A DNA stretch of 64,000 nt from a virus. The number at the start of each line of letters is the position of its first letter. The stretch's first letter is position 1. The translations under genes were made by a program, and so were the position numbers. The notes under the pieces were generated by a model, which did not search any database, had not been told where the DNA came from, and saw nothing but the letters and a program-made list of their open reading frames with translations. Of the stretch, positions 655 to 63,008 are shown piece after piece. The stretch lies in IMG/VR virus record IMGVR_UViG_3300029199_000002; one strand, 5' to 3'.

Positions 655-666
655 CTGTATTTACAG
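655..666. promoter_or_regulatory. copy of phage-wide palindromic motif CTGTATTTACAG, possibly overlapping a -35 (TTTACA ... TAATAA)
   Basis: exact match to motif repeated at many intergenic sites. Confidence 0.7.
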
Positions 667-715
667 ATTCCTGTATTGCGGTAATAATAGGACTAGTTAC
701 GTCAAGGTGAGACAG

Positions 716-916
716 ATGAAGACAGACTACGAACCAGTGAGAGTGGTGATGGATGCCTTGGACCGCATCCCTCTCACAGATGAGGACCGGCACATCCAAG
801 CCAGTCTGGAGTTCGAACTCCCACACGCCCTCGGCTGCGGATCACCGCAGCTGCTGGCCATGAAAATTGCCCACGATCTCCGCAGACTCGAGATCATGCT
901 CAGAGGTACTAAGTAA
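716..916 (+). CDS. hypothetical protein (66 aa)
   Basis: ATG at 716 after AAGGTGAG; stop overlaps xis start (TAATG). Confidence 0.6.
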   Translation: MKTDYEPVRVVMDALDRIPLTDEDRHIQASLEFELPHALGCGSPQLLAMKIAHDLRRLEIMLRGTK

Positions 917-1119
917 TGCAGCATCGAGAATTTGCCCAGAAGTTCGTGACCACATCGGAGTTGTGCGATCGCTACCGAGTCAGCTCCCGCACCCTGGTCC
1001 GCTGGAGGTCTGTGAAGGGATTTCCAGAGCCGGCCATGCACAACGTAGGCGCCGAAAACCTCTACTTGATGGAGGAAGTGGAGACCTGGGAAGAAGGCAA
1101 AATCAGGAAGAAGGCGTGA
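916..1119 (+). CDS. xis: excisionase / recombination directionality factor (AlpA/TorI/MerR-like winged helix)
   Basis: TTSELCDRYRVSSRTLVRWR..GFPEP pattern typical of Xis; near integrase. Confidence 0.8.
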   Translation: MQHREFAQKFVTTSELCDRYRVSSRTLVRWRSVKGFPEPAMHNVGAENLYLMEEVETWEEGKIRKKA

Positions 1120-1157
1120 TATCTTCACGAGCAATAATGACTGAAGGAGCTACCGAT

Positions 1158-1517
1158 ATGGGCAAACATACACTCTACGAACTGGCTACTGATTTCGAAC
1201 TGTTCCAAGAGTTTGCAGATCCCAACAACACATGGGCTGAAGAACTATTCGACTCTACCCCTGTTTCCGAGAAGCTGCGCCATCTGATCTTCACCTTCGG
1301 AGTGGATGAAGAGGGTCGTAACGAACTGGCTGCCAACGTCCGGGATGGCACCTACGTCTGCGAAAACCCGACCTTGCAAGAATGCCGTCAAGATGGGATC
1401 GAAGTGCTGACCGATATGGCGTTCTACGACGCCTTGGCAACCGCAACCGAAACTATCTACGGCAATGTTTCCGACAGCGTTGCCGCGCTTATCCGAGAAG
1501 ACTACGGGATTTACTGA
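1158..1517 (+). CDS. acidic hypothetical protein (119 aa)
   Basis: 3' part of ORF 867..1517; ATG at 1158 follows GAAGGAG; D/E-rich. Confidence 0.65.
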   Translation: MGKHTLYELATDFELFQEFADPNNTWAEELFDSTPVSEKLRHLIFTFGVDEEGRNELAANVRDGTYVCENPTLQECRQDGIEVLTDMAFYDALATATETIYGNVSDSVAALIREDYGIY

Positions 1518-2740
1518 CGCTTCGGCGGCTCAGCCACGATCTCCATCAAGCGATCCCACCACTTCTTATAGGCGGTCGCTTGCTCATCCAGGTAGAGGTG
1601 ACGGTCGTACACTCCTTGCATACCCTTTAGGGAGTGACCGAGCATCATTTCAGCGACAACCACGTCGGTTAGCGAAGAGAAATTGGTCCGCGCTGTCTTC
1701 CGCAGATCGTGCATAGACCAGTGCTTCATCTTCACGCCATAACTGCGCTCCGCTTCGTGCATCACCATCCCAGGAAGGCTGATGACAGTGCCATTAGCCA
1801 TTCTGACCGGCTTCAGGGCGCCGGTCATCAGAAGGCTCTTGGAGCGGGAGATACCCATCAATTCCTGCAGCATAGGGACCACTTCAGGGATTAAAGGCCT
1901 GACGTGATCCCTCTTCACCTTCTTCCTTACCTTGTTTTTCGCGACAGGTATGGTCCAGGTCATGGCCTCGAAGTCTAGATCCTCCAAAGGGTTCACATCT
2001 CTCAGCTCGCCGTTTCGGCAGCCGAAGAACAGACAGAGCCTTATAAAGAGTGTGTTACGCCTCAACGTCGGCGCCGTACCGGCGCAGTGCCAGACCAACC
2101 TAATCTCTTCCTCGGCCAGCGCTCGGCCAGCGTCACCACTGTCCTCTATCTGCAGGTCGTCTCGAGTGTTCAGCAGCGCGAGAGGCTGGGAGTTGATAAG
2201 CCCCCGCTTGTACGCCCACAAGTGAACTTGCTTTGAGGTGTTCAGGATTCTCTCTGCTATAGAGGGGGCCTTCGCTTTGACCCCTCCCAGAACAGCCATC
2301 CACTGCCCTCCTGTGGTCTCGTCTACGGGGAGGTCACCAAGCGTCGGGAAGACGTGGATCTCGAAGGAGCGGAGGTAGGCCTCTGCGTCCTGGTAATTGC
2401 CGAGGGAGTAGCCCTCGTGCCACATCATGTACAGGCTCCGGTTTGTTGGAACACCCGAAGCGTTCGATTTTTCAACCTTGCGTCGAACCCTCGGGTCAAC
2501 ACCCTGCTCAAGCAGCGCCTTCAGCCGAAGGTGCTCGGTGCGGGCCTCCTTTAGAGACATTAAAGGGTAAGTACCTAGGTCGAGCCTGGCAGGCTTTCCA
2601 AGGAACCGGTACCTGTACTGAAAGACAATCCTTCCGCCGGCGGAAACTCGGATACCCAAACCCCCTGCGTCAGCTTTCTCGAGAGTGCTGTCGCGTGGCT
2701 TTTTATGGTTGGCTTTTAACCAAGAATCTGACAGTGCCAT
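1511..2740 (-). CDS. int: tyrosine integrase, P4-like with N-terminal arm-binding domain
   Basis: GLGIRV...FQYRYRF.GK..RLDLGTYPLMSLKEAR arm domain; catalytic R (GCRNGEL), HDLRKT, LGH, Y (GVYD); likely start MALSDSWL at 2740. Confidence 0.95.
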   Translation of the reverse strand: MALSDSWLKANHKKPRDSTLEKADAGGLGIRVSAGGRIVFQYRYRFLGKPARLDLGTYPLMSLKEARTEHLRLKALLEQGVDPRVRRKVEKSNASGVPTNRSLYMMWHEGYSLGNYQDAEAYLRSFEIHVFPTLGDLPVDETTGGQWMAVLGGVKAKAPSIAERILNTSKQVHLWAYKRGLINSQPLALLNTRDDLQIEDSGDAGRALAEEEIRLVWHCAGTAPTLRRNTLFIRLCLFFGCRNGELRDVNPLEDLDFEAMTWTIPVAKNKVRKKVKRDHVRPLIPEVVPMLQELMGISRSKSLLMTGALKPVRMANGTVISLPGMVMHEAERSYGVKMKHWSMHDLRKTARTNFSSLTDVVVAEMMLGHSLKGMQGVYDRHLYLDEQATAYKKWWDRLMEIVAEPPKRQ

Positions 2741-2792
2741 GCCTACTTCCCTTGTGTACATATCCGGAGGGCGATAGTGACACACAAAAAAC

Positions 2793-3064
2793 TATGTACG
2801 CTAGTCTGTACGCACTTGGAATGGCTGGGGTTGTCTGGAAGTGTCCTGGGTAGTCCGAGGCAATATGTCTGTAAGCCTTTATTCATCTAGGGTTGAGCAG
2901 GGTTATTGACCCTGCTTGTCCCGACTTGAAACTGCCTCAGTTGTTGTACAGGTGAATTGCCAATCTCAAGAAGGAACCCAGCGTTTTCGCACTCTTCAGA
3001 GGGATAAGCGAAACGGTAGCCTGGATTATGTACGCTGATATGTACACGTTTGGAAATGTACCCC
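2793..3064. other. putative attP: tandem arm-type direct repeats flanking a ~210-bp core region
   Basis: TATGTACGCT at 2793 and 3027 (identical), variants at 2805, 3039, 3055; non-coding, upstream of int; inverted repeat AGCAGGGT..ACCCTGCT inside. Confidence 0.65.
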
Positions 3065-3215
3065 AACCCACTTCTTAGGAGACCTTGAACATGGTAGCAG
3101 GGCAGAGCCCGCTGAAAATAGCTTATACAACCGTATACCTGTATTTACATAAACACGGGCATGTATTACTGTAATCACAGCCAACAAATCCACAGAAAAA
3201 TAGAAGGTATTAAAA

Positions 3216-3482
3216 TTGTCGCCGTCTGCCGCACTTCTGAGTAGTCTGTCAAGCACTTTTCGCTTGGAACTCGTTTCTCTGATCACCCAGGAGGGGGGGT
3301 TGTGTGTAAACGAAATAGCAGAAAAAAGTGGGACCTCCCAAGCCACTGCATCTCGTCAGCTGATCATCCTGCGAAACGCAGGTGCAATTAAGGTCGAGAA
3401 GCAAAACAACAAGAGGATTTACAGCGTAGACGAACAGGTCGTTAAGCTGGTGGAGGCAGCGAGGAGGATTGCAGAGGGCTAG
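3216..3482 (+). CDS. ArsR/SmtB-family winged-HTH transcriptional regulator
   Basis: RLELVSLI....LCVNEIAEKSGTSQATASRQLIILRNAGAI..EK...RIYS pattern; TTG start. Confidence 0.8.
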   Translation: MSPSAALLSSLSSTFRLELVSLITQEGGLCVNEIAEKSGTSQATASRQLIILRNAGAIKVEKQNNKRIYSVDEQVVKLVEAARRIAEG

Positions 3483-3491
3483 TTCCCAGAT

Positions 3492-3520
3492 TTGACAGCA
3501 GATGAGGTTGCTTGCAGGCT
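3492..3520 (+). promoter_or_regulatory. possible sigma70 promoter TTGACA-17-CAGGCT
   Basis: consensus -35, weak -10, upstream of ORF 3615. Confidence 0.4.
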
Positions 3521-3614
3521 ATCCGGAAAGAAAAACGCCGACCCTAGGGCCGGCGTAAATAAGAAAACCACGTCTTATTTTATCTCCGACCGGCACCAGT
3601 AAGCAAGGAACCTC

Positions 3615-4256
3615 ATGGAACTCTATATGGCAGCGGTCTCCCTTCCTAAACGGGGTCGCTATCTTCCTTTGCACAAACACCACCTCCAAACGCAGATGAC
3701 CTGGACAGCTCGTGACAGGGAAGACTACTTCGCGCTGCTCGAGACTGTAGAGACACTGTATAAAAAAGGCCCTGCCGGCCTGGGCATCCCGAGACCTCTG
3801 TTAGAAGCGCTGTGGGTTGAAGACCTGACGGTCACAGAGGCCACCAACAGGATTCTCCCCTACTTCTTGCAGTGCGACAGCCACAGGCATAACAAGGTGG
3901 CACCTCTGCATGCCAAAAGGGATCGCGTAGAAGTCCTCGGAATGGCAGGGCTGCCTCCGGACCAAAACGGACTGAGATTCGCTGTCATAGGCAAAGGTGT
4001 TGAGCGCCTTGCGCTCTTACCATGGGTTCTAGAAGCCGTGACTAAGGATACGCAGGAGGAGTTCACAGCGGACGACCTAGACACACTGGAAGGACGTTCA
4101 AACCCCTCTCTTGTCCGAATTATCTCACTGGCAGAAAAACCTGTGACGAGCCAAGGCTTTGCCAAGATAGTGGCTGTGCCCGCCGAGGCTATCGTCAACC
4201 TGTCCCGTACACACAAAGGCGAGTTCATTCGAGAAGTACCCAGGGTATGGGCGTGA
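3615..4256 (+). CDS. hypothetical protein (213 aa) in regulatory cluster
   Basis: ATG after AAGGA; no recognised domain. Confidence 0.7.
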   Translation: MELYMAAVSLPKRGRYLPLHKHHLQTQMTWTARDREDYFALLETVETLYKKGPAGLGIPRPLLEALWVEDLTVTEATNRILPYFLQCDSHRHNKVAPLHAKRDRVEVLGMAGLPPDQNGLRFAVIGKGVERLALLPWVLEAVTKDTQEEFTADDLDTLEGRSNPSLVRIISLAEKPVTSQGFAKIVAVPAEAIVNLSRTHKGEFIREVPRVWA

Positions 4257-4313
4257 AAATCCGGGAACTTACGACGCAGTCAACACTCTGTTCAGTGAGT
4301 ACGTATACCTGCA

Positions 4314-4342
4314 TTGACAGGAATACAGTAAACCCCTAGGAT
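4314..4342 (+). promoter_or_regulatory. sigma70 promoter TTGACA-17-TAGGAT with motif variant CTGCATTGACAG (4309-4320) over the -35
   Basis: direct sequence match. Confidence 0.75.
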
Positions 4343-4381
4343 TTAATTACACGTTAATTGACATATATAGGTACACAAAAA

Positions 4382-4597
4382 ATGGCACACGCTGAGGCGC
4401 AAAATCTGACCGTACGGGCAGCGGACCTTCTAAGCCGGCAGGAGAAGAAATTCACTTTGGACATGCCGGAGAGCCTGCACGCCAAGATCAAGGGCATCGC
4501 TGCTGCGCACCGCATGTCTGCAAAAGACGTAGTCCTCGAGGCACTTATGAACTACACCATCCCCAAGTACACAGGAAAAGAGGTATCTGATGAGTAG
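4382..4597 (+). CDS. ribbon-helix-helix DNA-binding protein (Arc/ParG-like)
   Basis: KKFTLDMPESLHAKIKGIAAAHRMSAKDVVLEAL beta-helix-helix pattern. Confidence 0.8.
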   Translation: MAHAEAQNLTVRAADLLSRQEKKFTLDMPESLHAKIKGIAAAHRMSAKDVVLEALMNYTIPKYTGKEVSDE

Positions 4598-4904
4598 AAA
4601 CCTAGTTAGGCTGAGAAAAAAGGCAGCAACGAGGCAGGATATCAGTACACCCGAGTCACGCGACACACTGATAGCGGCATTCCTTGATGAGCTTCAAGCA
4701 GTCGTCTGTAACGACGTCATCGATAACGTCAGTGACGAAGCACTGCACTGCCTGCACATAGACTGGATCAAAGCAATCCTGGCGGGAGAGACGGACGAGG
4801 AAAGGCGCAGCAGGCTGATCAGCGCGGTTATGATCTTCCCCGTGACGAATGAAACCAAACCACCTTCACCTCTAGCAGAGAACGTAGTATCAATCCATGG
4901 CTGA
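4590..4904 (+). CDS. hypothetical protein (104 aa)
   Basis: overlapping start/stop with neighbours in operon. Confidence 0.65.
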   Translation: MSRNLVRLRKKAATRQDISTPESRDTLIAAFLDELQAVVCNDVIDNVSDEALHCLHIDWIKAILAGETDEERRSRLISAVMIFPVTNETKPPSPLAENVVSIHG

Positions 4905-5235
4905 TATAGATGAAAAAGTGGTGCAGTACACGTTAGATTTCAGCCGCAAATGTCAGCTGAATATCGACGAGCACGTCCTGCGCGACAGCATCTATAGCCA
5001 CATGCAAGTGGCTAGGTCAGTGGTAACCGACTCCACCTTGGAGCGGATAGGCCACGTACACCTTTCGGTTATGATAAACACAGCAGCCCGGTACAACTTG
5101 TCACTGGCTGAGGTGATGATGGAAGCTGTGCGCAAGGGTGTTCAACCCGTAGCACCACTGTGTGCTTCCGTAGAAAGTCGGAAGGAAAGCGCAAAGCGGA
5201 TCAGCCGCAAGCCTCTTCTGCGCGTGGTAAAGTAA
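4897..5235 (+). CDS. hypothetical protein (112 aa)
   Basis: operon continuation. Confidence 0.65.
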   Translation: MADIDEKVVQYTLDFSRKCQLNIDEHVLRDSIYSHMQVARSVVTDSTLERIGHVHLSVMINTAARYNLSLAEVMMEAVRKGVQPVAPLCASVESRKESAKRISRKPLLRVVK

Positions 5236-5248
5236 CATTCTTGCCTGA

Positions 5249-5278
5249 TTGACTCCCTCCCCTGCCGCCCGGTAGGAT
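5249..5278 (+). promoter_or_regulatory. sigma70-like promoter TTGACT-18-TAGGAT; motif copy at 5326-5337 downstream
   Basis: direct sequence match upstream of replication operon. Confidence 0.55.
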
Positions 5279-5372
5279 CGCCCTCTTGCGGTAATCTAAT
5301 AACGAGAAAACGTATATCTCCAAACCTGTATTTACAGGTTTACATTATTCCGGGTATACAAAGGAAACCACG

Positions 5373-6680: not shown

Positions 6681-6718
6681 CCATCGCGCCTAAGAATTTG
6701 AATTAACCGGAGAGGCCC

Positions 6719-6958
6719 ATGGAAATTCAACGAGTTACAGAGACCCCCGCACCTGTCCAGAGAGTCGATTACGAGGAGCTGGCCAGTCACTACAACGACC
6801 TCGACGTAGACGAGACCCTGAAGATGCCCAGCGTCTACAACACCACGCTGTTCAAGAAAACCTTGGAGCGTAAAGGCCTGGGCGCTGACGACGTCGAGGT
6901 CTACCAACGCAGGGGCAACTGCTACATCACCCGTAAATCCACTGCCACGATGGTGTGA
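6719..6958 (+). CDS. hypothetical protein (79 aa)
   Basis: GGAGG RBS, operon position. Confidence 0.7.
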   Translation: MEIQRVTETPAPVQRVDYEELASHYNDLDVDETLKMPSVYNTTLFKKTLERKGLGADDVEVYQRRGNCYITRKSTATMV

Positions 6959-6964
6959 CCGCCC

Positions 6965-9832: not shown

Positions 9833-9877
9833 GTCGGGCAAGAAGAAGGGGCGTGCGAGCCCCTTTAGGAGAACAAG

Positions 9878-11807: not shown

Positions 11808-11836
11808 TTGACTACCGGCTATTCACCCGGTATAAC
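11808..11836 (+). promoter_or_regulatory. sigma70 promoter TTGACT-17-TATAAC; motif variant CTGTATTTCCAG at 11860-11871
   Basis: near-consensus promoter. Confidence 0.8.
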
Positions 11837-11932
11837 TGCAAACCTGTGTTCCTGTATTGCTGTATTTCCAGCAAGCAGAGACACCAATGAAGCTGATAAC
11901 CGTAACCATCAAACCCTAAAAGGAACGCCCAA

Positions 11933-12778: not shown

Positions 12779-12793
12779 TCTCAGCGGCAACAG

Positions 12794-12824: not shown

Positions 12825-12863
12825 ACCCCCTAGAACCTGTATTTACAGGAATAAGGAAAGAGC

Positions 12864-13166
12864 ATGGACAATCAGCATAAGAAGATTAGCGGCTATCGCG
12901 ACCTCACCCAGCCAGAAATCGACCTGATGAACCGCATCAAGGACAAGGGCCGGGAGCTGCTGGAGTTGCAGGCGAAGCTGGTCACGGCGTTGAAGGTGCA
13001 GCAATCAGATAAGGCTGCCGCAGTAGCCTGCAACACTGATGAGAACGCCGAGTTCGAGCGATTCATAGACGCCGAGCCGCTGCGTTGGGCTGCCATCGGC
13101 AAGACCGACATCCAGACTGGGGTTATGGCTCTGGTGCGTGCCGTTGCTCAGCCGGCCGGAGTGTGA
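12864..13166 (+). CDS. acb2: anti-CBASS protein Acb2 (cyclic oligonucleotide sponge)
   Basis: MDNQHKKISGYRDL..EID.MNR.K and AEP.RW.AIGKTDIQTG.MA..RA.AQP closely match Pseudomonas phage Acb2 as I recall it; Y11 and K26 positions conserved. Confidence 0.9.
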   Translation: MDNQHKKISGYRDLTQPEIDLMNRIKDKGRELLELQAKLVTALKVQQSDKAAAVACNTDENAEFERFIDAEPLRWAAIGKTDIQTGVMALVRAVAQPAGV

Positions 13167-17193: not shown

Positions 17194-17212
17194 ATAACAA
17201 CTAAAGTATAGC

Positions 17213-17246
17213 TGTAAATACAGGGCCGTAAGGCCCTGTATTTACA
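17213..17246. promoter_or_regulatory. perfect 15-bp hairpin with GTAA loop containing two copies of the CTGTATTTACAG motif
   Basis: TGTAAATACAGGGCC-GTAA-GGCCCTGTATTTACA. Confidence 0.7.
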
Positions 17247-17262
17247 TCAGAGGAGAACCACC

Positions 17263-22396: not shown

Positions 22397-22453
22397 ACCC
22401 TTATTGCTGTAAATACAGCAAGTTGTTAACCCATTAACACGAAGAGAAGAAGC

Positions 22454-30815: not shown

Positions 30816-30889
30816 AAGAAATGGCCGGTCAGGGGTATAGCAATAATACAGCAACCCATATTTACAGGCGAACCATATTTACAGGACCG

Positions 30890-40896: not shown

Positions 40897-40969
40897 GGCA
40901 TCACTGCTGACAGGTTACTGAGCCGTCAAGGTACTCTAAACCCGTATTTATGTAAATACAGGTTTCTGG

Positions 40970-47423: not shown

Positions 47424-47475
47424 CCTAGAGGAATGACGCCCATATTTACAGCTTTATGTATTTACGGATTGCGCC

Positions 47476-48516
47476 TTACGGCTTGGCCAGGTATGTAATT
47501 GCGATTGCGCATACTACGGTCAGGGCGCCGATGGTCACTTCGCCTTTCTCAGCGGTCAGGGTGATCGACGTCTTGTAGTCCTGGTTCTCACCATCAGCGC
47601 TGTTGGAGGGCGACTGGGCGACCAGGTTCGGCAGGTAGACGGTGTAAGTTCCGTCTACCGTGTCCAGGGTCAGCTCGCCCGACAGTCGCTTGTTGGTCAT
47701 GTGAGCGTCGAGTACGGTCTGGTCGAAGTAGTAGATCTCCCCTGACAGGGATACACCGACCTTGCCTACCCCAACGCCGGCAGCGAACTCGTGCCCAAGG
47801 CCCGGCTGTTCGCGGACGTTGTTCTGCACCTGCAAAGAGGCGTCCGAGAACGTCATCTCAAGAGGTGTGCCCTGAGAGTCCTTGATGATCAGATTCTTGA
47901 GGTTGTTGGAGCTATCCGCGACCTCGTAGTCTGCAGGCACCGCCTTCGTTGTGGCGATGCTGCCTCCGAGACCGTTCGCGCCCGCAACCGCGCTGGCATA
48001 GTCAGCGAAGGTCGAGATGGTGTTCAGAGCCAGGGTAATCAGCTCGCCGTCACCAAACTCCATGGTGAAGTCGTTGATCATGGTGCCGTAGTAACGCTCG
48101 TGGTAGAGATTGTCAGTAGCCTCCGGCCCGCCCTTGGTAGTCTTCTCGAAAACCATGAAGCGTTTCAGGTCGCTGTCGGTGATGAAGCTGCCGGCTGAAG
48201 CGTCCACTTCGTCCACAAGTGCCCATTCAGACATCAAGCCGAGGGCCAGCATGTCTTGGATGAACGGGGTGGCGCCGAACTCCAGGGTGGTGGCGCCGGA
48301 AGCGCTACCCTTGGTGTTCTTCGAGTTGTTGGGGCGGCGATCGTTGGTAATGGCGGTGGACGCCTTTGCCTCCTTAGCCATGTTGAAACCTTCCGTGGTG
48401 AACGGCAAGTAGCTGAACTGCGGGGCGGCGGCAGTCACTTCGGCGGGTGTGGTGGCGTCGGCAATGGCGTATGCCAGAGAGACGGCGGATGTATCAGCAA
48501 AGCTGCGGACTGGCAT
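47476..48516 (-). CDS. major tail tube protein
   Basis: size, position, G...LSGEIYY, LP.L pattern. Confidence 0.8.
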   Translation of the reverse strand: MPVRSFADTSAVSLAYAIADATTPAEVTAAAPQFSYLPFTTEGFNMAKEAKASTAITNDRRPNNSKNTKGSASGATTLEFGATPFIQDMLALGLMSEWALVDEVDASAGSFITDSDLKRFMVFEKTTKGGPEATDNLYHERYYGTMINDFTMEFGDGELITLALNTISTFADYASAVAGANGLGGSIATTKAVPADYEVADSSNNLKNLIIKDSQGTPLEMTFSDASLQVQNNVREQPGLGHEFAAGVGVGKVGVSLSGEIYYFDQTVLDAHMTNKRLSGELTLDTVDGTYTVYLPNLVAQSPSNSADGENQDYKTSITLTAEKGEVTIGALTVVCAIAITYLAKP

Positions 48517-51315: not shown

Positions 51316-52506
51316 TCACGCCTTCTCGAGGCTGACGACCGACCATGCCTCGTCGTGCAGACGGGTCGACATCTCGCCGTAGTCCACGCGGAAGCCGGTG
51401 GCTTTGCGCATCACGTACTCTTCAATCGCGTCGTAGGAAGCCGACACGTTGACGAAGCGTTGGATGGCGTAGCGAGGGTCCAGGCCAACCATTACGCCGG
51501 CACCGAACACGTCGGCAGCGAACGGGGTGATCTTCGGCTGGGTGATACCCAGGTTCAGGCCGCCCCAAGGGGTGGAGATTTTCGAGGAGTCGACGCCGGT
51601 GGTGGATGGCAGCAGTGCTTCGTCGACAGTCAGCGCGGTGTCGATGTCGGTCAGTACCTGGCTGAGGTTGCAGATGTTCTGCTTGCTGTGCAGCCACTTG
51701 ATAAACGCACGCTTGGTGATCTTGCCGTCCACAGTGATCGCGCCGTCAAAGGTGCCGATCTTGGTCACCGGCAGAGCAGTGATGCCCAGGTCGACATCAC
51801 CTTGCACCATCGAGCGGATCTGCTCGTTGACGCGGCGGATGCGGTCACCACGGGACTGTGCTTCCATCACGACACGAACCAGGTCGATGGTGGTGGACGC
51901 CATGGCTTCGTCGGAGATCATCAGACCAACGCTGTTGGTCGGGATACGGTACGACTTGTCGCCGGTGGTGATGGAGATCATCGTCTCCGGCTCAGCCAAC
52001 TGAGCGATACGACCGCTACGGCTACCTTCCGGCGCAGTGGTGTCGATGATCGGCTGGTCGGCCTTGGTGCCGTTGACGCTGCGGCTGACAGCGACCAGGG
52101 ATTCCCAGATGCTCAGAATGTCGCTGCCGTCGTCACGCAGGGCGTTGGCCTGCATGGTTTCCAGAATCAGCTGCGGGTACAGCAGGCGAGCGCCAAGGCT
52201 GTTGTCGCTGCCGTCCGGGCGGCGGAAGCCGTCAGCCAGCTTGGAACCTGCGATGTCCTGCAGGGTCATCGAAGGCATGCCGAACTTCTGGCCGTCCATC
52301 AGGCCGGAGTTGGCGTACATCTGGTCAAGCGGCTCGCCCATGCTGCGGTCCCAGTCGGGCGCCAGGTGCTTGGCGTACTGGCGCAGGGTCATGCCCTTCT
52401 GCGCAGCGTGCTTGTAGGCCTCAACGGTGACGTCAACGGACTTCAGGACTTTACTGCCCTTCTCGTCCTTGGCCCAGTATTCCAGCTTGAATGGTTTCAT
52501 GTTCAT
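51316..52506 (-). CDS. major capsid protein
   Basis: 396 aa, strongly biased codon use, follows protease and decoration genes. Confidence 0.8.
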   Translation of the reverse strand: MNMKPFKLEYWAKDEKGSKVLKSVDVTVEAYKHAAQKGMTLRQYAKHLAPDWDRSMGEPLDQMYANSGLMDGQKFGMPSMTLQDIAGSKLADGFRRPDGSDNSLGARLLYPQLILETMQANALRDDGSDILSIWESLVAVSRSVNGTKADQPIIDTTAPEGSRSGRIAQLAEPETMISITTGDKSYRIPTNSVGLMISDEAMASTTIDLVRVVMEAQSRGDRIRRVNEQIRSMVQGDVDLGITALPVTKIGTFDGAITVDGKITKRAFIKWLHSKQNICNLSQVLTDIDTALTVDEALLPSTTGVDSSKISTPWGGLNLGITQPKITPFAADVFGAGVMVGLDPRYAIQRFVNVSASYDAIEEYVMRKATGFRVDYGEMSTRLHDEAWSVVSLEKA

Positions 52507-52528
52507 TTCCTGTATTTCTGGTAGGTGC

Positions 52529-52550
52529 CGGACCTGTAATTACAGGTCCG
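52529..52550. promoter_or_regulatory. perfect 22-bp palindrome centred on CTGTAATTACAG
   Basis: CGGACCTGTAATTACAGGTCCG upstream of capsid gene. Confidence 0.75.
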
Positions 52551-52562
52551 TTTCCAAAGGTT

Positions 52563-53018: not shown

Positions 53019-53029
53019 GACTGGCCTCC

Positions 53030-54433: not shown

Positions 54434-54503
54434 TGGCAGTCCTTCGTGGCAGGGGCGAACCCTTGGTAAGTGTCGGCGAGGCTCCCGCCGAATCCGGTAA
54501 TGT

Positions 54504-55967
54504 TCACTGGTCATCTCCGCCTGATTTGCTCGGAGTGCCTGGGTTCAGCGCACGCCCGGTCGAGCTTTCGCGCTCGCCTTCTTCACCACCCGAGGCAGTC
54601 TTCTTGGTGTAGAAACCGGTACCTGCGAAGATATCTGTCAGGCCTTGCGGGCGTATCCCAAGCTCGTAGCAAGCCTGTGCGTCGTTGATAAGGCCGTAGC
54701 TAAGTAGCTCCAGGACCCTCTTTTGTTTGGTGCCTTTGTAGGCTTCCAGCTCCTCTTCCGGGCGGAGGTTGACTGGCATGAATTCGAAGTAAACGTGGCC
54801 TTCTACGCCCATGAGCCGAACGGCCAGAGTCAGGGCGCGGCTCATTACCTCTTCTACCGGCGGGCGAGCTGCCTCGACGACTTTGAGGTAGATCAGAGTC
54901 TCCGCGTTGGAGAGACCTTGGCCACCACTGGCACGCAGGCCGCTTACGCTTGCCGGGGTCTTGAGCGATGCGCCCAGCAGGTTGCCCAGCGTGGTTAGCA
55001 TCGGCGAGTAGTCGGATTTGCTGCCACCTGTGTCCTTCACGTCGTAATTGACAGAGTCATAGGCGACCAGGGCGTCTTCCGGCTCGAGGCCTTCAAGGGC
55101 TTGCTCAACCTGCTCTCGGACAGTGTTGAAGTAGGTGTTCCGCTTGGCTGGATCGGACTTGATATCTTCCGGCGCGGTAGACAGAACCTTATCGCTGTCC
55201 AGTTTGGCCAGTAACCGGCTGTGTCCAGTGCGGTTGACGGCCCGGTGCGTGTCTTCCAAAAACTCATTGAAGTTCACGGTGTGGGACAGGCCCGGGCGAA
55301 GCAGGCTCACCGCGTAGGCTTCGTCAGCATTACGGTTGTGCTCAGCGACGAACGCTGTGGGGATGTTCAGGTCGATATCGCCGTTATCCTGCGTAGGATA
55401 ACGACCGCCCTTCCCATCAGCTTCCCACTGAATAGTGGAGTAGCCGACCGGAACCAGCCGTTCTGGGCCGAAGGTTTTGTCCAGGACCAGCTCAACTCCG
55501 CAGCCTCCAGTACCGATAACGTCGGTCTGCAGGGTGGTCAGCAGGGACTGCAGGCCCGGCTTATCGTTGAAGCCCTGACTGTAGTCGTGGAGCGTACTGA
55601 GGCGGTCAATTAGCGAGTAGGCAACCGCAGTCACCCCCGTGTCCATGGCACCTTCAGCCGTGTAACCCGCAATACGGAATCCACTGTTGGCAGCCAGTGC
55701 CACCATGCTGTTCGCCGCTGAAGAGAACAGTCCATCTTCACGCATCAGCGTGCGGATGATCTCGTTGATATCCGTGCGGTTTCGGACATCCTTAATGGCG
55801 GTAGCTACGTAGCGGTTCAGCGTGTTGCTGATCGCCTGGCCACGGTCAAAATCTGATCCTGGGCGCTTAGCGCGAGCCTTACCAGCCAGGTTACGTTTTG
55901 GCAGCACGACGCTCGCACCCTGGGTATTGGTGCGGGGAGAACGTGACGCTGCTTTGCGTATTGCCAT
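54504..55967 (-). CDS. portal protein
   Basis: 487 aa between terminase and protease; helical pattern, C-terminal R..LG..P-like motif. Confidence 0.8.
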   Translation of the reverse strand: MAIRKAASRSPRTNTQGASVVLPKRNLAGKARAKRPGSDFDRGQAISNTLNRYVATAIKDVRNRTDINEIIRTLMREDGLFSSAANSMVALAANSGFRIAGYTAEGAMDTGVTAVAYSLIDRLSTLHDYSQGFNDKPGLQSLLTTLQTDVIGTGGCGVELVLDKTFGPERLVPVGYSTIQWEADGKGGRYPTQDNGDIDLNIPTAFVAEHNRNADEAYAVSLLRPGLSHTVNFNEFLEDTHRAVNRTGHSRLLAKLDSDKVLSTAPEDIKSDPAKRNTYFNTVREQVEQALEGLEPEDALVAYDSVNYDVKDTGGSKSDYSPMLTTLGNLLGASLKTPASVSGLRASGGQGLSNAETLIYLKVVEAARPPVEEVMSRALTLAVRLMGVEGHVYFEFMPVNLRPEEELEAYKGTKQKRVLELLSYGLINDAQACYELGIRPQGLTDIFAGTGFYTKKTASGGEEGERESSTGRALNPGTPSKSGGDDQ

Positions 55968-56051
55968 GGGCTGTATTTACAGGTTTACAGGTTTGACTAC
56001 GATTATTGGACACTCCGTAGTTAGAAGCAACTGGTTATTCTTTGACCAGAC

Positions 56052-56080
56052 TTGATAACGATAGGGCATATCGCTAGGCT
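56052..56080 (+). promoter_or_regulatory. sigma70-like promoter TTGATA-17-TAGGCT for the moron lipoprotein
   Basis: sequence match about 30 bp upstream of ATG 56111. Confidence 0.5.
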
Positions 56081-56110
56081 GCTGTGATTACAGGAAGTAG
56101 GGAGTTTGCA

Positions 56111-58126: not shown

Positions 58127-58136
58127 GTCCCTCTCC

Positions 58137-58433
58137 TCAGATTAGCTTGCAGTTTGCGCGATTGTCACAGGTAGTCGATTGACACAGTGTTCTGGCAGCT
58201 TTGGCCAAGCTGCTTGGACCCTTGGGGTGTTTCACAGAGTCCACCCGAACAGGTATCTCCACCTTGAAAGCCCACTCCAGGGCCGTGATGAACCCCAGGA
58301 CCTGGTTAACCAGATAATTGGCGACCCAGTTCTTGAAGCCCTCTCCCGCCGGACACTTGCTTACGTCAGTGGTCCAAGTTCCCTCAGCCGAAACACGAAT
58401 CGGCACTAAGCCGAACAACAGGTATCTCTCCAT
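58137..58433 (-). CDS. hypothetical protein (98 aa) behind an SOS-box promoter
   Basis: ATG after GAAGTGG; directly upstream of terL. Confidence 0.55.
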   Translation of the reverse strand: MERYLLFGLVPIRVSAEGTWTTDVSKCPAGEGFKNWVANYLVNQVLGFITALEWAFKVEIPVRVDSVKHPKGPSSLAKAARTLCQSTTCDNRANCKLI

Positions 58434-58470
58434 TTTCCACTTCTCGCACTCGTTATTTTCACAGGGAACA

Positions 58471-58486
58471 CTGTATTTTTATACAG
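58471..58486. promoter_or_regulatory. LexA (SOS) box CTGTATTTTTATACAG overlapping the -10 of a - strand promoter TTGTCA-18-TATAAA (58507-58478)
   Basis: exact CTGT-N8-ACAG match with AT-rich spacer. Confidence 0.7.
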
Positions 58487-58711
58487 CAGTCCGTCAACCC
58501 CTGACAATCGCTTTCAGCTTCCATCCACCTAGCATATATGTAGTAGTAGAGTGCCACCTGCCGCGGCGGTCGCTGATCTTGCCTGTATTTTTGACGCCTG
58601 TCATACGCCGAAAAGCAGGTAAGTCCCCACAAATCTATCGGGATTGCTGTAAATACGGCGAAGATGGGCTTTTCTCCGCTTGTCGGATTAATCCTTTTTC
58701 AGCTCGCTCGG

Positions 58712-59254
58712 TCACACTTCTCCGGTCTCAATCCTTTCCAGCTCCAATAGCACTGCCTCTTGCTGCTCCCTCGTCATGTGGGACTCCATTACTCGACGCA
58801 GCGCCTCTTCCTGCTTCTGGATGCGGTCCAGGGTGTAAATCTTGGGCAGGTCGCGAACCATCACCTGGGTCACTTTTAGCGAAAGGTTTAGTGCGTCCTT
58901 CAGGGGGATTTCGTAGTCGTCGGCGTTGATTGTCTTGGTGCCGTCAGTGTTCACGATGCGGCGAAGTACGGTGTCCACAAGCTGAATCTGCTGCTTGAAT
59001 GTCATCAGGACACTGGCCTCGAGGCCGGAGATTTTGGCCACCATGTCACGGCGGGTCGTCGGGCTCATGGCCTCAACGATCTTTTCCTGGACCGCGTAGG
59101 ACAGCATGTCCTGGCGGAGCGCGCCGATGACGTCTTCCACCGCCATTCGCAGTGTCGGGTCGTCTGACAGCGCGTCTCCGCGAGGAGTCACGGTCAGTGG
59201 TGCGTAAGGTAGGCCGCTGCCCTCGTCGCTATTACCTGTGCGGTCGCCCCTCAT
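58712..59254 (-). CDS. putative terminase small subunit (180 aa)
   Basis: helical protein upstream of terL; ATG at 59254 overlaps stop of upstream peptide. Confidence 0.55.
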   Translation of the reverse strand: MRGDRTGNSDEGSGLPYAPLTVTPRGDALSDDPTLRMAVEDVIGALRQDMLSYAVQEKIVEAMSPTTRRDMVAKISGLEASVLMTFKQQIQLVDTVLRRIVNTDGTKTINADDYEIPLKDALNLSLKVTQVMVRDLPKIYTLDRIQKQEEALRRVMESHMTREQQEAVLLELERIETGEV

Positions 59255-59367
59255 TCGCCGTCTCCCCAGCTCACTTCCAACTCGCGGAACGCCAGAAACA
59301 TCAGGAACCCTATGGTGGTGAGTACCGCGCCACAGAGCAGGCCCCAAAACACGATAGTCACCACCAT
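59251..59367 (-). CDS. small membrane protein (38 aa)
   Basis: AAGGAG RBS; MVVTIVFWGLLCGAVLTTIGFLMFLAFRELEVSWGDGE. Confidence 0.6.
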   Translation of the reverse strand: MVVTIVFWGLLCGAVLTTIGFLMFLAFRELEVSWGDGE

Positions 59368-59393
59368 CTCGCTCCTTATGCTTCGTCGCGACT

Positions 59394-59675
59394 TCAGGCT
59401 TCGACGCGGATCTGGTCCGGGTTGGCGCTGTAGGTCAGCACGGTGCGGGCCGGAACTTCTACTTCGGTTGCGACGACGCCGCCCTTGATGGTGCGCGCTG
59501 CGTACTGGCGAGCACGGAACTTTCCGAAGCCACGCAGGGTGAGGTGGCCGCGATCGAATGCCAGCTCACTGATGCCAGCCAGGACGGATTCCACAGCGGT
59601 CTTGGCAGCCACTTTGGAGATGTCGGCGTGGGTGGCGACGAAGTTGATCAGGTCCTGCTTGGAGGCGTTACTCAT
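59394..59675 (-). CDS. HU/IHF-like DNA-bending protein
   Basis: SKQDLI..VA..ADISK..A..AVE.V, LTLRGFGKF, R, VPAR. Confidence 0.9.
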   Translation of the reverse strand: MSNASKQDLINFVATHADISKVAAKTAVESVLAGISELAFDRGHLTLRGFGKFRARQYAARTIKGGVVATEVEVPARTVLTYSANPDQIRVEA

Positions 59676-60057
59676 TTTGGGTGGCCTTTTAAGTTCTTGA
59701 GGTGGTTCTTGTGGGGTTATGCGTTGGGTCTAGGAGACTTGCGAGAGTTCCCGCAGGTGGGCAAACCCATATTGCTGTACTTACAGGTTTACAGAGTATA
59801 TCGGGTGGAGGTGGGTGTAAAGGGGTGTCGGTTTGGTGGTCGTTGAGGATGGGTGTAGAGGGTGAGGCTTTCGGTGGGGGTGATGAGGTCGTGGGCGGGC
59901 TGGGGGTGGCGGGCGGTGGGGGATGTCGGGGTGTATAACGATATAAGCCAGGTTTGGTTTTTCGTAAATTTTTGGGCGCGGAGGTAGGGGTGCAGGTGGT
60001 GTCCTCTATGTATAAAAAGAGGGTCCGGGGCTGTCTGAAATTTTCGCAAATTGACGC

Positions 60058-60086
60058 TTGACTCTATGTTTCTATTCCCGCATAGT
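60058..60086 (+). promoter_or_regulatory. sigma70 early promoter TTGACT-17-CATAGT
   Basis: direct match at a compositional boundary. Confidence 0.7.
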
Positions 60087-60092
60087 TCGTCC

Positions 60093-60780
60093 CAAGCAAC
60101 GCAAACAACGGTTGCCTAGCCAAGCCCTACGGGGTGAGGCGCAAGGCTCCAGCCTTGCCCGTTCTTTAAACCCGCTAGTGTGTCGCTCAACCGAGCGGCC
60201 TGTATTGAGTCACAACGGCAGAAGCTTTGCCGTTGCGGATAACCTTGCCAGTGGTCTGACTGCTGGCCAGCGCTACCTAACCCCGTCTATATGTCTGGCA
60301 ATGGCTGGCAAGGCGACGGGCAACGGAAGCAAGGCGCAAAAGGGGAAACGCCAGACGGTCTAGGCCTCGGGAGACAAAGAAATCAGCTTTTCAGCCTATG
60401 GGTATGAAGGGCGGAGCTTTGCCTAACGATCGGAGTGATCGGCACGCACTGCATTGGGCATCCTGTATTTACAGTTTTTCTGCTTTACAGCTTGCCGGAT
60501 CATTAAAAACTTATCGCTTTGCCAGACTATCCGCGCCCTAGTTGCGCCCATTGTTTGCCGCTATCTGCTATCCGTTGCCATTGCCTTCGATAGCGCACAA
60601 GAAAGCCGGCAGACGCTACAACTAACGGCCTTATAGCGGCAAAGCATGGAAACGGAAACGAGGCAGGCGGTAGCGTCTGCCTCGACTAGCTAAACCATCC
60701 CAGCGGCTTATACAAAGGGCATTCCACTAGATTGCCCTTTGCCGTAACCCACTAAAGAAAATCAGAACCTAAACGAAAGG
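60093..60780 (+). ncRNA. candidate large structured non-coding RNA / 5' leader
   Basis: ~700 nt with no convincing ORF, many perfect 8-12-bp local and long-range complementary pairs. Confidence 0.4.
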
Positions 60781-60790
60781 GAACCCCACT

Positions 60791-61510
60791 ATGAAAAGGC
60801 AAGCCACCGTTATCACCATCGCCGGTAAAATCATCACTGCCCAACAAGTCGCAGCATTCAACAAGTCGTTTGCCGGTCAATCTGAAATCATTACCACTTG
60901 GGCGAACTATTGCACCATTCATGCAGTGGCTCACAACAACATCGACCCATTGAATGCCATGCTAAACAATGCCGCATTTCGCCTCACAAGCGGCAAAGCG
61001 TCAAAACTTGGAAAAGAGGTATTCTCTTTCATTAAGGCCCACGCGCCCCAGATTCAAGAAGACACGAAAACCGGGCGCTTTATCGTCAAGAAAATGAAAG
61101 TAGAAAACCCGCAATTCAAGCACTTTGCGGACCCTTCAAACCTTGACGACGACGGCAAGCCAGCCATTGTCGAGCCGGGCGACTTTGCGCTTTCCTTCGA
61201 TGCTTGGCGCGTTCTGGAAGAGCCGAAAAAAGAGGAAAAGCCGGCCACATTGAAAGCCGCAACGGTCGCCAATCAAGTGCAAAAGGCATTGGACGCGATC
61301 AATGGCAAGCTTTTCACTGCGTCCGCCGATGAGGCTCGCCAGTTGGCCGAACAATTAAAAAGCTTGTTTGTAACGGTCGATTTTATTGCCGGCCAGCTGG
61401 CAAAGTCAGAAATGCCACTAGACACCGATAAAGCAGCCGAACTGCTGAAAAGCGGTCAAGCGGGCAAGTCGAAGCGTGCCGGTGGCAAGGTAGCGCCGGT
61501 TGCTGTCTAA
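60791..61510 (+). CDS. first early protein (239 aa), unknown function
   Basis: AAAGGG RBS, AT-richer codon use, followed by terminators. Confidence 0.85.
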   Translation: MKRQATVITIAGKIITAQQVAAFNKSFAGQSEIITTWANYCTIHAVAHNNIDPLNAMLNNAAFRLTSGKASKLGKEVFSFIKAHAPQIQEDTKTGRFIVKKMKVENPQFKHFADPSNLDDDGKPAIVEPGDFALSFDAWRVLEEPKKEEKPATLKAATVANQVQKALDAINGKLFTASADEARQLAEQLKSLFVTVDFIAGQLAKSEMPLDTDKAAELLKSGQAGKSKRAGGKVAPVAV

Positions 61511-61517
61511 CCCAACC

Positions 61518-61540
61518 AGCCGCCTTCGGGCGGCTTTTTT
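61518..61540 (+). terminator. intrinsic terminator
   Basis: AGCCGCC-TTCG-GGCGGCT followed by T tract. Confidence 0.92.
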
Positions 61541-61561
61541 ATTTCGCGCGCGCGTGCGTAT

Positions 61562-61584
61562 GCCGGCCTAGTGCCGGCTTTTTT
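61562..61584 (+). terminator. second intrinsic terminator
   Basis: GCCGGC-CTAGT-GCCGGC followed by T6. Confidence 0.75.
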
Positions 61585-61739
61585 ATGCCCGCGAAAAGGT
61601 GAAACGGCGCTGAAAAGTTCCAAAAAACTCCTGAAATTTCCCAGAAAATCTCCGGAAATAGCCAGAAATCTCCAATAAGTATAAGAAAACGGTTCGCCAA
61701 CCACATGACGTAACCAATCCCACAAAGGAAACCCACACC

Positions 61740-62174
61740 ATGCAAACCAACCAAACCGAGCAGGATCTTAGCCTGCCCAATGTCTACTTCGTCACCGTTT
61801 CGTCTGCTATCACTGGTGAGACCCACCACCTGTATATCCCGGCGGATTTCAGCGGTTCAGCATTCCGGAAAGCACAGAACATCTGTGCCGAAAGATTCCA
61901 CTTCCGCCCCTTCCGCTCGAACAGCACGGTGAAAATGCGCCGGCTGAAGCTGTCCGACTATCTGGAGAATCCGGATGCGCTCCGGGCTGCACTTGTCACA
62001 GCCGCCGAACTCGGCGAGCGCGACACTCTTTTGGCCCTCCGCCGCAGGCCGCAGGAAATCGCTGCAATGCTCAGTGTGGCTGAACAGCCGGTGATCGACT
62101 TCGATGCCGTCCTGGGCCGTCTAAAGGAGCAGCTGTCCACCCTCGACAGCCTGCCTGCAAAGGAGGCTGTGTAA
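61740..62174 (+). CDS. hypothetical early protein (144 aa)
   Basis: AAAGGA RBS. Confidence 0.8.
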   Translation: MQTNQTEQDLSLPNVYFVTVSSAITGETHHLYIPADFSGSAFRKAQNICAERFHFRPFRSNSTVKMRRLKLSDYLENPDALRAALVTAAELGERDTLLALRRRPQEIAAMLSVAEQPVIDFDAVLGRLKEQLSTLDSLPAKEAV

Positions 62175-62428
62175 TGGGCCGTCAGGTGAGTGCGAGTCTC
62201 GATGATCTGGCGCTGGCAGGGTGCCTCGTACAGATCGCCTTTTTCGTCGAGGACGACGAAGGCACCGCGGTGGTCGTTCGCAGGGCCCCCGTGGACTTCC
62301 CTGATGGCAGCCGCCTCACCAGCGATGTGGGCGACTTCCTCGTCTTCGACTGCCGCAACCGGCAGAGCGCGAACTTCTGGGCGCTTGAGCAGCTCATCGA
62401 CCTCGGTGTGCCCTTCACTTGGTCGTGA
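62174..62428 (+). CDS. hypothetical early protein (84 aa)
   Basis: TAATG overlap, AAGGAGG RBS. Confidence 0.75.
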   Translation: MGRQVSASLDDLALAGCLVQIAFFVEDDEGTAVVVRRAPVDFPDGSRLTSDVGDFLVFDCRNRQSANFWALEQLIDLGVPFTWS

Positions 62429-62440
62429 AGGTCATCCCGT

Positions 62441-62513
62441 TCGCCACGAGTAAAGGTGGCTACAAGTAAAGGTGGCCATGCGTTTCCATAGTGTCGCCAC
62501 GAGTAAAGGTGGC
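62441..62513. repeat. direct repeats: TCGCCACGAGTAAAGGTGGC x2 and AGTAAAGGTGGC x3
   Basis: 62441-62460 and 62494-62513; 12-mer at 62449, 62465, 62502. Confidence 0.9.
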
Positions 62514-62829
62514 CATCGGCAAAGGGGATTCCATCGTGTTCAACTTCCAAGTTTTCAGCAGCAGCGTACCGGGGAAGACCCGCGCCCACCTCGTCGAGGA
62601 CGACAGCGTCCTCCCCATCGCCTTCGTCGCGTTCACTGTCAGCGATGAGCCGGGGCCACTCAACGTATTCACCCGCGTCAGCGCCGAGCTGTACACCGGG
62701 GAAGGCTTCTACCCGGCTCGTCACAGCGCGTCCATGACCTGGCCCTGTGATACACCCATTCTTACTGACGAAGTGCCTGTGAGGCCCGTTCTGGGCTTCA
62801 TGGGCGAGGGCGTAAAGGAGGTCGCATGA
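62491..62829 (+). CDS. hypothetical early protein (start uncertain)
   Basis: coding-like frame, ATGA overlap with next ORF. Confidence 0.6.
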   Translation: MSPRVKVAIGKGDSIVFNFQVFSSSVPGKTRAHLVEDDSVLPIAFVAFTVSDEPGPLNVFTRVSAELYTGEGFYPARHSASMTWPCDTPILTDEVPVRPVLGFMGEGVKEVA

Positions 62830-63008
62830 GCATCACGCAGCAACTCGCCCATTGGCTGATCGCCATGGGCCTTGAACCGGCTATGGCCGCCCTCCTCGCC
62901 CTCCTGTCGCTTCCGGTTGGATTCCTCCTGGTCGGAACAGGTGTGGCAGGTCTCCTGGAAATCCGTGATCGTCGTAAGCGTGGACCTGTATTTACAGGTT
63001 TACGTTAA
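62826..63008 (+). CDS. small membrane protein (60 aa)
   Basis: AAGGAGG RBS, hydrophobic core. Confidence 0.65.
   Translation: MSITQQLAHWLIAMGLEPAMAALLALLSLPVGFLLVGTGVAGLLEIRDRRKRGPVFTGLR

Follow-up and report, generated by a model that had tools for sequence, protein, structure and literature searches.

A palindromic box motif in an 8-bp register at the gene junctions of a temperate phage, and its probable role as a dispersed DNA operator

Results

The phage and its genes

We analysed a stretch of 64,000 nucleotides (the window) that comprises bases 302-64301 of a 69.8-kb viral contig from IMG/VR (record IMGVR_UViG_3300029199_000002, labelled G000), and in particular a 12-bp palindrome, CTGTAWWTACAG, that recurs at its gene junctions. 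An original prediction, made by a model from the letters of the window, had proposed this palindrome as the site of a single regulator. The contig has a G+C content of 57%. Its nearest matches in GenBank were single genes of Pseudomonas phages, at ~75% identity, so that the contig represents a poorly described temperate siphovirus, probably with a Pseudomonas-like host. The integrase gene is followed by a cassette of small genes for an ArsR-type, a 213-aa, a ribbon-helix-helix (RHH), a 104-aa and a 112-aa protein, then by replication genes and a long minus-strand block.

A short palindrome fills the intergenic gaps

Nine exact copies of CTGTAWWTACAG were found, against 0.00 expected from 100 dinucleotide shuffles. 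With up to one mismatch the window held 17 copies against 0.15 expected. All nine exact copies given by the original prediction (at 655, 5326, 12837, 17212, 22407, 52534, 55971, 60463 and 62986) and all of its variants (at 3139, 4309, 11860, 17236, 30856, 30873, 40950, 47440, 58647 and 59775) are present. Its details also agreed with the letters: a second TTTACA extends the copies at 5326, 55971 and 62986, a 22-mer is common to 3139 and 40950 (as reverse complement), and the copy at 4309 covers a -35 element, which is that of the RHH gene promoter. Copies that it had missed lie at 3169 and 56082 (one mismatch), at 47456 (two mismatches) and, beyond the window, at 67269 in window coordinates. 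The claim that almost all copies are intergenic was borne out on the whole 69.8-kb record, where 17 of the 18 copies with up to one mismatch lie in the 6.7% of the DNA that falls outside our own gene list and was defined as non-coding (binomial P = 1.9e-19). The sole remaining copy, at 62986, is inside a doubtful 60-aa open reading frame (ORF).

Among all 10-mers and 12-mers of the genome, words of the motif were the most frequent, and they dominated the intergenic k-mer spectrum. The exact core, TGTA-N2-TACA, was present at 13 sites of the record, and about 22 arrays, described below, fill most of its sizeable non-coding gaps. The word TTTACAG occurred 17 times on one strand and four times on the other; a replication- or packaging-oriented signal was considered and dropped because the relatives show no such strand bias. 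A full-text literature search with the letters of the motif returned nothing relevant.

The repeated unit is an array of boxes in an 8-bp register

The unit of each site is larger than the 12-mer. It consists of two to six degenerate 4-bp boxes (CTGT/ACAG, with the variants CCGT, CCAT, ATGT, ACGG and ACAT) placed every 8 bp, with A/T-rich spacers between them. When the sites were read in blocks of 4 nt, nearly every one showed three to six in-register boxes on alternate blocks. Some boxes stand in direct and others in inverted orientation; an inverted pair is the most frequent and gives CTGTAWWTACAG, and direct triplets are found at 11843 and 55971. Direct TACA-TACA pairs peaked at 8, 16 and 24 bp, and inverted TGTA-TACA pairs at 6 and 14 bp, both in this phage and in its relative G009; the peaks were absent in the motif-free phage G006. 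CTGT-N4-ACAG was observed 13 times against 1.3 expected and direct box pairs six times against 2.5 expected, and the divergent order of boxes showed no enrichment over expectation. TGTA was preceded by C in 93% of the phage sites. The proposal of one regulon is thus supported in that one conserved, intergenic site spans the early, replication, tail, head and accessory modules, and needs revision in that the unit is a box array rather than the bare 12-mer.

The arrays are conserved in related phages

Exact 14-mer scans of viral and genome contigs returned mostly single chance hits. Only five viral records held several copies, and these were the source of the set of relatives; the scan of genome contigs gave no lead beyond one Pseudomonas locus (L189), which was the entry point to that genus. 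The syntenic relatives G002, G003, G005, G007, G008, G009 and G010, at 67-83% nucleotide identity, carried 3-19 copies each, compared with 0-1 for a reversed-pattern control. The motif was kept at the syntenic junctions corresponding to 5326, 11860, 12837, 17212, 22407, 40950, 47440, 52534, 55971 and 60463, in flanks that had diverged or carried insertions and deletions. The central two bases flipped between TT, AA and AT at orthologous sites, and the orientation of the sites was independent of gene strand, as expected for a symmetric protein on duplex DNA.

Arrays were also conserved in the cassette. In three subgroups of relatives an array lies over the perfect -35 element of the RHH promoter, which is an autoregulatory layout. 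The same layout with a third in-register box was found in L281, L282 and L284, and the array was degenerate in L141, L142 and L290. Three-box arrays upstream of the ArsR-type gene were found in L141, L142, L281 and L290, so that every subgroup is covered.

Two comparisons extend beyond these close relatives. G006 (L143-L148; 82.7 kb, 95% complete), whose helicase is 44-45% identical, shares replication genes and part of the minus-strand block. It had no motif copy even at one mismatch, no integrase domain, and no homologue of the ArsR-type, 213-aa, RHH, 104-aa, 112-aa or HU-like proteins. The motif-free phage is therefore also one without integrase and cassette, and the motif goes together with the lysogeny and immunity cassette. 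The more distant L317 and L319 have the same cassette and kept the 8-bp register, with changed boxes and loss of the palindrome. In L317, three direct ATACAG units precede the ArsR-type gene and CTGT.ATGG.ACGG.ACAG precedes the helicase gene; in L319 the helicase gene is preceded by CCAC.ATAT.CCAT.CCAC. Their RHH strands differ too (TKFTLVLP in L317, KKFSIELP in L319).

As a separate observation, a TTGACC-17-TAGGAT promoter in front of the helicase gene of G006 is directly followed by two CTGTATAA units in direct orientation.

The sites fall into three positional classes

By position, the sites could be sorted into those over the -35 elements of the promoters of regulator genes (RHH and ArsR-type), those just downstream of sigma-70-like hexamer pairs (11843, 56082, 5326 and 55971), and those in short operon gaps, where a stop codon or a terminator-like hairpin often precedes the site and the next ribosome-binding site follows it (Table 1). 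The RHH promoter reads TTGACA-17-TAGGAT (4314-4342), with the array overlapping its -35 element. In the second class, the array at 5326, conserved in G002, G003, G005, G009 and G010, begins 48 nt after a promoter-like TTGACT-18-TAGGAT (5249-5278). The array at 11843 begins 6 nt downstream of TTGACT-17-TATAAC (11808-11836), and both hexamers and array are conserved in G002, G003 and G005. The array at 55971 follows a weak promoter-like TTGCTT-17-AATAAT (56030-56002, minus strand). The gene after the 56082 site is on the plus strand and has a lipoprotein-like signal.

Table 1. Genes and motif sites of the phage (window coordinates)
Feature	Coordinates	Strand	Description
Tyrosine integrase	1511-2785	minus	
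ArsR-type winged-helix protein	3216-3482	plus	Pfam HTH_5, E = 1.2e-7; alternative candidate binder
Orphan 213-aa protein			encoded between the ArsR-type and RHH genes
Arc/ParG-like RHH protein	4382-4597	plus	PHROG Arc-like repressor; alternative TTG start at 4358
104-aa partner gene	4590-4904	plus	overlaps the stop codon of the RHH gene
112-aa protein	4897-5235		conserved cassette member
Replication module			Dda-like helicase, primase, helicase, thymidylate synthase, ribonucleotide reductase, DNA polymerase, resolvase, ligase, SbcCD-like nuclease
Large-ORF block	~29 to 60 kb	minus	syntenic with relatives; tail, head and packaging are labels of the original prediction only
HU/IHF-like protein	59394-59675	minus	Pfam PF00216, E = 1e-11; 72% conserved in relatives
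Bro-N and KilA-N proteins			encoded on the contig
Site	655-666		exact copy; TTTACA is the -35 of TTTACA-17-AATAAT (660-688); in-register boxes to ~686
Site	3139-3150		upstream of the ArsR-type gene; array of 3-4 boxes with -35-like TTTACA
Site	3169-3180		second copy upstream of the ArsR-type gene; overlaps the putative -10/+1
Site	4309-4328		variant CTGC ATTG ACAG GAAT ACAG; centre is a perfect -35, TTGACA
Site	5326-5345		exact copy and third box; leader of the Dda-like helicase gene
Site	11843-11871		four boxes, three direct CTGT units then CCAG; before a 281-aa gene
Site	12837-12848		exact copy; flanked by a terminator-like hairpin and, on the other side, by the ribosome-binding site of the following gene
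Site	17212-17247		two copies 24 bp apart, directly before the DNA polymerase gene
Site	22407-22418		exact copy and upstream in-register box; before the DNA ligase gene
Site	30856-30884		two degenerate copies (CCAT ATTT ACAG) 17 bp apart; between two tail-region genes
Site	40942-40965		array of 3-4 boxes, CCGT ATTT ATGT AAAT ACAG; between two tail genes
Site	47440-47467		two degenerate palindromes side by side in a common 8-bp register; downstream of a 346-aa gene (47476-48516, minus)
Site	52534-52545		exact copy, centre of a 20-bp perfect palindrome; before a 396-aa head gene (51316-52506, minus)
Site	55971-55998		exact copy and two direct TTTACAGG units: CTGT ATTT ACAG GTTT ACAG GTTT
Site	56082-56093		one-mismatch copy; 1 nt after the -10 of TTGATA-17-TAGGCT (56052-56080)
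Site	58647-58658		one-mismatch copy; between two minus-strand genes
Site	59775-59794		one-mismatch copy and in-register boxes CCAT .. CTGT .. ACAG .. ACAG; near a divergent control region
Site	60463-60490		exact copy and second TTTACAG 16 bp further; early leader region
Site	62986-63005		exact copy and third box; 47 nt before the Bro-N gene
SOS box, CTGT-N8-ACAG	58471-58486		not of the motif family; overlaps promoter-like TTGACG-16-TACAGT (minus)

Downstream of the promoter-like pair at the SOS box is a 98-aa ORF (58137-58433), which may encode a LexA-gated antirepressor and thus a possible input for induction. The original prediction had likened the half-site of the motif to that of LexA, and this likeness fails. 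The two sites have the outer letters CTGT...ACAG in common, but these are 4 bp apart here and 8 bp apart in the SOS box. The LexA reading was rejected because the spacing is wrong; the only site with the N8 spacing is the separate box at 58471.

Some sites have features of their own. The two copies at 17212-17247 form the arms of a palindrome with a 15-bp stem in this phage; the long perfect palindrome before the DNA polymerase gene spans 17208-17251, with an RNA fold of -26.5 kcal/mol. Another long palindrome, at 52524-52555, folds at -17 kcal/mol as RNA and has one compensatory flank change in the relatives. The 487-aa gene (54504-55967, minus; the portal gene in the original prediction) has its start codon 3-4 nt after the 55971 motif and lacks a Shine-Dalgarno sequence there, in this phage as in G002 and G005. 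Translation of the gene must begin in an unconventional way, or the annotated start is wrong. At the left end of the window, a 216-aa ORF (867-1517) gave a sub-threshold match to the AcrF31 anti-CRISPR family (23.7 bits against a cut-off of 27).

The RHH protein is a candidate binder

ParG binds degenerate tetramer boxes that are set apart by AT-rich spacers of 4 bp and arranged as both direct and inverted repeats, each box taking one dimer (PMC3130281). The 8-bp box grammar of the phage sites matches this arrangement, which points to the RHH protein of the phage, and we put this protein forward tentatively as the leading candidate binder. It matched the Arc-like repressors of PHROG (E = 1.3e-6), and its predicted structure has a beta-alpha-alpha order, with a predicted local distance difference test score (pLDDT) of 78. 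The top fold matches in the PDB were all RHH proteins (AmrZ, Arc, omega and CopG), at E > 0.8, which is not significant for a small fold; the match to the omega repressor had 34% identity over 41 columns (E about 1). A search of PDB sequences with the RHH profile gave sub-threshold hits only (ParD, MazE and AmrZ). The strand K-x-T-x-D-x-P is invariant in the closer, motif-keeping relatives. Of the RHH and ArsR-type proteins, both among those that the original prediction named for binding tests, these comparisons favour the former.

A further link comes from an unrelated low-GC phage, G001 (with its relative L297), in which one gene contains the palindrome nine times, again with the 8-bp register. 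This gene encodes a 287-aa protein of 8-aa repeats, with a C-terminal RHH domain that is 42% identical to the RHH protein of the window (E = 9e-8). It follows a gene for a ParA-like ATPase (locus L134 17364-18981), and the phage has terminal repeats. The array may be a centromere, or an operator inside the gene of its own binder. The co-occurrence of motif and RHH domain is suggestive only, because the boxes coincide with a 24-nt coding repeat. A partition site was also considered for the phage of the window and rejected, as the ORFs scanned with Pfam or PHROGs yielded no ParA and the phage has an integrase; such a site applies only to G001.

Homologues of the RHH protein also occur elsewhere. 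P0005 forms, with a 102-aa partner, a stand-alone chromosomal cassette (L294 1165-1636), and P0009 is encoded in a 135-kb contig. The L294 cassette lies between genes of the lepA-like translation-GTPase family and for a mucD-like protease, beside RseA/MucB/RseC-family genes, a setting that suggests a mobile regulatory or toxin-antitoxin-like module. For the phage pair, a complex prediction of the RHH dimer with its 104-aa partner scored 0.01 and gave no verdict, and protein-atlas look-ups of the 104-aa and 112-aa proteins returned no usable family.

Discussion

The arrays as DNA operators

We consider it very probable that the sites are DNA operators of one protein. At the junctions examined, the sequence of the stem is conserved, the flanks show no complementarity above chance, the copies on -35 elements are not transcribed from those promoters and arrays include direct repeats in an 8-bp register, all of which argues for an operator on duplex DNA. 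The original prediction had left both DNA and RNA operators open; the copies on -35 elements, the flips of the central bases and the lack of flank complementarity above chance fit the DNA level better. That the binder is encoded by the phage itself seems to us the better bet, and that it is the RHH protein, binding all arrays, silencing promoters and blocking read-through, is a plausible but provisional version of this.

In that version, one phage-encoded repressor would bind all of the ~22 arrays, with one RHH dimer per box and cooperative coating of the array. It would limit its own synthesis by repressing the RHH promoter through the array over the -35 element, and the ArsR promoter would be repressed likewise. 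Sigma-70-like promoters with an array just past the -10 element would be shut. In the short operon gaps, bound repressor would act as a stoperator-like roadblock to read-through, so that the integrated prophage stays silent; the roadblocked polymerases would come from co-directional immunity genes or from outside. Release could occur through the LexA-controlled 98-aa gene, as a possible antirepressor.

Several observations weigh against assigning the arrays to the RHH protein in this way. No copy of the motif was found in the 220 nt upstream of the close, same-strand RHH homologues P0005 and P0009, which is unexpected if this type of RHH protein autoregulates through the motif, and the RHH protein with its 104-aa partner looks like a self-contained module. 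The motif does not change between phages although their RHH proteins share only 57-59% identity, which would be easier to explain with a conserved host protein. Covariation of RHH strand and boxes was seen in two distant lineages only. The ArsR-type, 112-aa and HU-like proteins show the same phyletic pattern as the RHH protein, and the ArsR-type gene equals the RHH gene in its conservation within the cassette and has the richest arrays in front of it. In promoter scans, sigma-70-like hexamer pairs were no commoner than in shuffles, so the promoter assignments are leads, of which only the conserved promoters, chiefly that of the RHH gene, are to be trusted; since TTTACA is part of the motif, some of the overlaps with promoters may be trivial. 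Lastly, the core of the motif is that of the operator of HutC.

Alternative binders and functions

Pseudomonas HutC binds TGTA-N2-TACA, at one site with three half-sites, as dimers to hexamers (PMC12977541). The 10-bp core of the phage sites and its spacing are identical to this operator, and because of this identity we took seriously the reading that the sites are co-opted operators of a host GntR/HutC-family repressor (HutC or a paralogue), released by a ligand (urocanate for HutC). Multi-half-site operators and oligomers are also known for HutC (PMC12977541). None of the 151 Pseudomonas genomes had a chromosomal regulon of the motif (0-2 hits each), and 13 of them had CCTGTATATACAGG (CCTGTA-TA-TACAGG) as a conserved single site. 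This chromosomal site has the phage consensus spelling CCTGTA-NN-TACAGG, but its TA centre is absent from the nine exact copies. In the three genomes checked (L300 2539, L301 2510 and L307 2541), a gene of the histidine-ammonia-lyase family begins shortly after it. In G044 (L316), the only genome examined further, the lyase gene is followed by ATP-binding cassette (ABC) transporter genes and then by a GntR/UTRA regulator gene; the site looks like the operator of a HutC paralogue. A host protein is also favoured in that the phage record encodes no GntR or UTRA domain and that the motif stays invariant between phages even where their own regulators have fallen to 45-60% identity. In contrast, the hutU operators read CTTGTA-YR-TACAAG, with T before TGTA in five of five genomes, where the phage sites mostly have C and read CCTGTA. 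The extra half-sites of hutF step by 6 bp rather than 8 bp, and the lineages L317 and L319 kept cassette and register but lost the TGTA-N2-TACA palindrome. A search for the host by way of the 487-aa gene found no homologue in any of 802 genomes (401 of the genus and 401 of the family of the Pseudomonas reference). We regard a host repressor as unlikely. The same doubt applies to its corollary, a phage without its own regulator for these sites, in which a catabolic signal of the host, such as urocanate or a related compound derived from histidine, would govern silencing and release of the whole prophage, instead of or besides SOS.

A different phage protein could also bind the arrays as DNA operators, namely the ArsR-type, the 112-aa or the HU/IHF-like protein. 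All three are missing from the motif-free G006; the ArsR-type gene lies in the conserved cassette with two arrays upstream in all subgroups, no cassette member is better conserved than the 112-aa protein (66-80% identity), and the HU-like protein is both a clear family member and well conserved (Table 1). However, the recognition helix of the ArsR-type protein is only partly conserved, about five positions differing in L141, whose motif is identical, and no DNA-binding fold could be recognised in the 112-aa protein (pLDDT 0.49). We know of no ArsR or HU protein with an 8-bp register of short boxes, and such a register is documented for RHH proteins (PMC3130281). A binder among these three thus seems to us a doubtful prospect. 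That the motif acts in RNA, as a small hairpin of leaders and intercistronic stretches that a translational regulator binds or that serves in processing or stability beside ribosome-binding sites, is highly improbable. Many copies do lie 3-17 nt before start codons, the 3' end of the motif (ACAGGAG) overlaps the Shine-Dalgarno sequence in relatives, and some copies fold with their flanks at -5 to -8 kcal/mol (52534 at -17, 17212-17247 at -26). Yet transcripts from the RHH and ArsR promoters begin only downstream of the copies on their -35 elements, pairing at flank positions 1-8 did not exceed that of shuffled partners (all P > 0.17) and gave no sign of hairpin covariation, and what is conserved is the sequence of the stem and not its pairing; arrays of direct repeats in an 8-bp register have no rationale as RNA structures. 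We give scarcely more credit to the motif as a promoter element or activator site for middle or late units. It contains TTTACA, three promoter-like hits use this as their -35 (660, 4314 and 55976), and palindromes near -22 mark the late promoters of phage P1. However, many gaps between stop codon and ribosome-binding site measure only ~30 nt and the motif abuts the Shine-Dalgarno sequence there, leaving no room for an upstream start site. Distances to start codons range from 3 to 99 nt, at several sites the array is downstream of a conserved -10 element, and the large ORFs yielded neither a phage RNA polymerase nor a sigma factor; promoters for a phage RNA polymerase were dropped on the same ground.

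Comparison with known systems

The original prediction regarded one operator across lytic and morphogenesis genes as unlike known control, but dispersed operators of this kind have been described. In mycobacteriophage L5 and Cluster A phages, more than 20 copies of the stoperator lie in promoters and short intergenic spaces and are thought to stop initiation and elongation (PMC9283540). As in L5, the phage has many copies of one short site over its genome (18 with up to one mismatch, plus degenerate ones, in 69.8 kb), placed in promoters and short intergenic spaces. In contrast to the asymmetric 13-mers of L5, whose orientation follows transcription and whose binder is a two-domain monomer, the sites here have a palindromic core, free orientation and multi-box arrays in an 8-bp register. 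We noticed no gp71-like protein, although no specific search was made for one. Immunity repressors with about 14-20 scattered operators are also found in P1 (C1) and in Streptomyces phage phiC31, where the operators are palindromic. Their sequences, lineages and repressor families are unrelated to those here, and none has been described as an 8-bp box array.

The grammar of the arrays is closest to plasmid RHH systems. In plasmid TP228, ParG binds the parH centromere and the O_F operator, and the latter overlaps the promoter of ParG itself (PMC3130281). In the ParG and omega systems short boxes recur at a fixed period of 7-8 bp with A/T-rich spacers, in direct and inverted orientation, and all of these features recur here. 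The phage likewise encodes an RHH protein, whose own promoter has an array; the same boxes stand at the homologues' own promoters in the phage relatives and in G001/L297, and not at those of P0005 and P0009. Unlike the phage, ParG and omega (pSM19035) have one or a few long arrays by their own plasmid operons; the box here is CTGT and not ACTC, in ~22 short arrays over 70 kb, and no ParA partner was found in the phage ORFs scanned. Genome-wide operators of one phage repressor are thus already known; the present case differs in its lineage, in the 8-bp grammar of its box arrays and in a core equal to a host metabolic operator.

Implications

The sites provide an exact map of the control points of this phage and a small ready set of probes, and the accessory genes at 12864 and 56111 are seemingly gated by the same switch. 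The motif is also a useful marker in metagenomes for the phage group and its immunity type. The identity of its core with the HutC operator makes cross-talk between host amino-acid catabolism and prophage silencing a possibility that can be tested. If the proposed mechanism is correct, one small protein would control nearly every transcription unit of a 70-kb temperate phage. Stoperator silencing, so far known mainly from actinobacteriophages with helix-turn-helix repressors, would then extend to a siphovirus lineage of Gram-negative bacteria, and genome-wide silencing would probably extend to an RHH protein that coats DNA in the manner of plasmid partition proteins.

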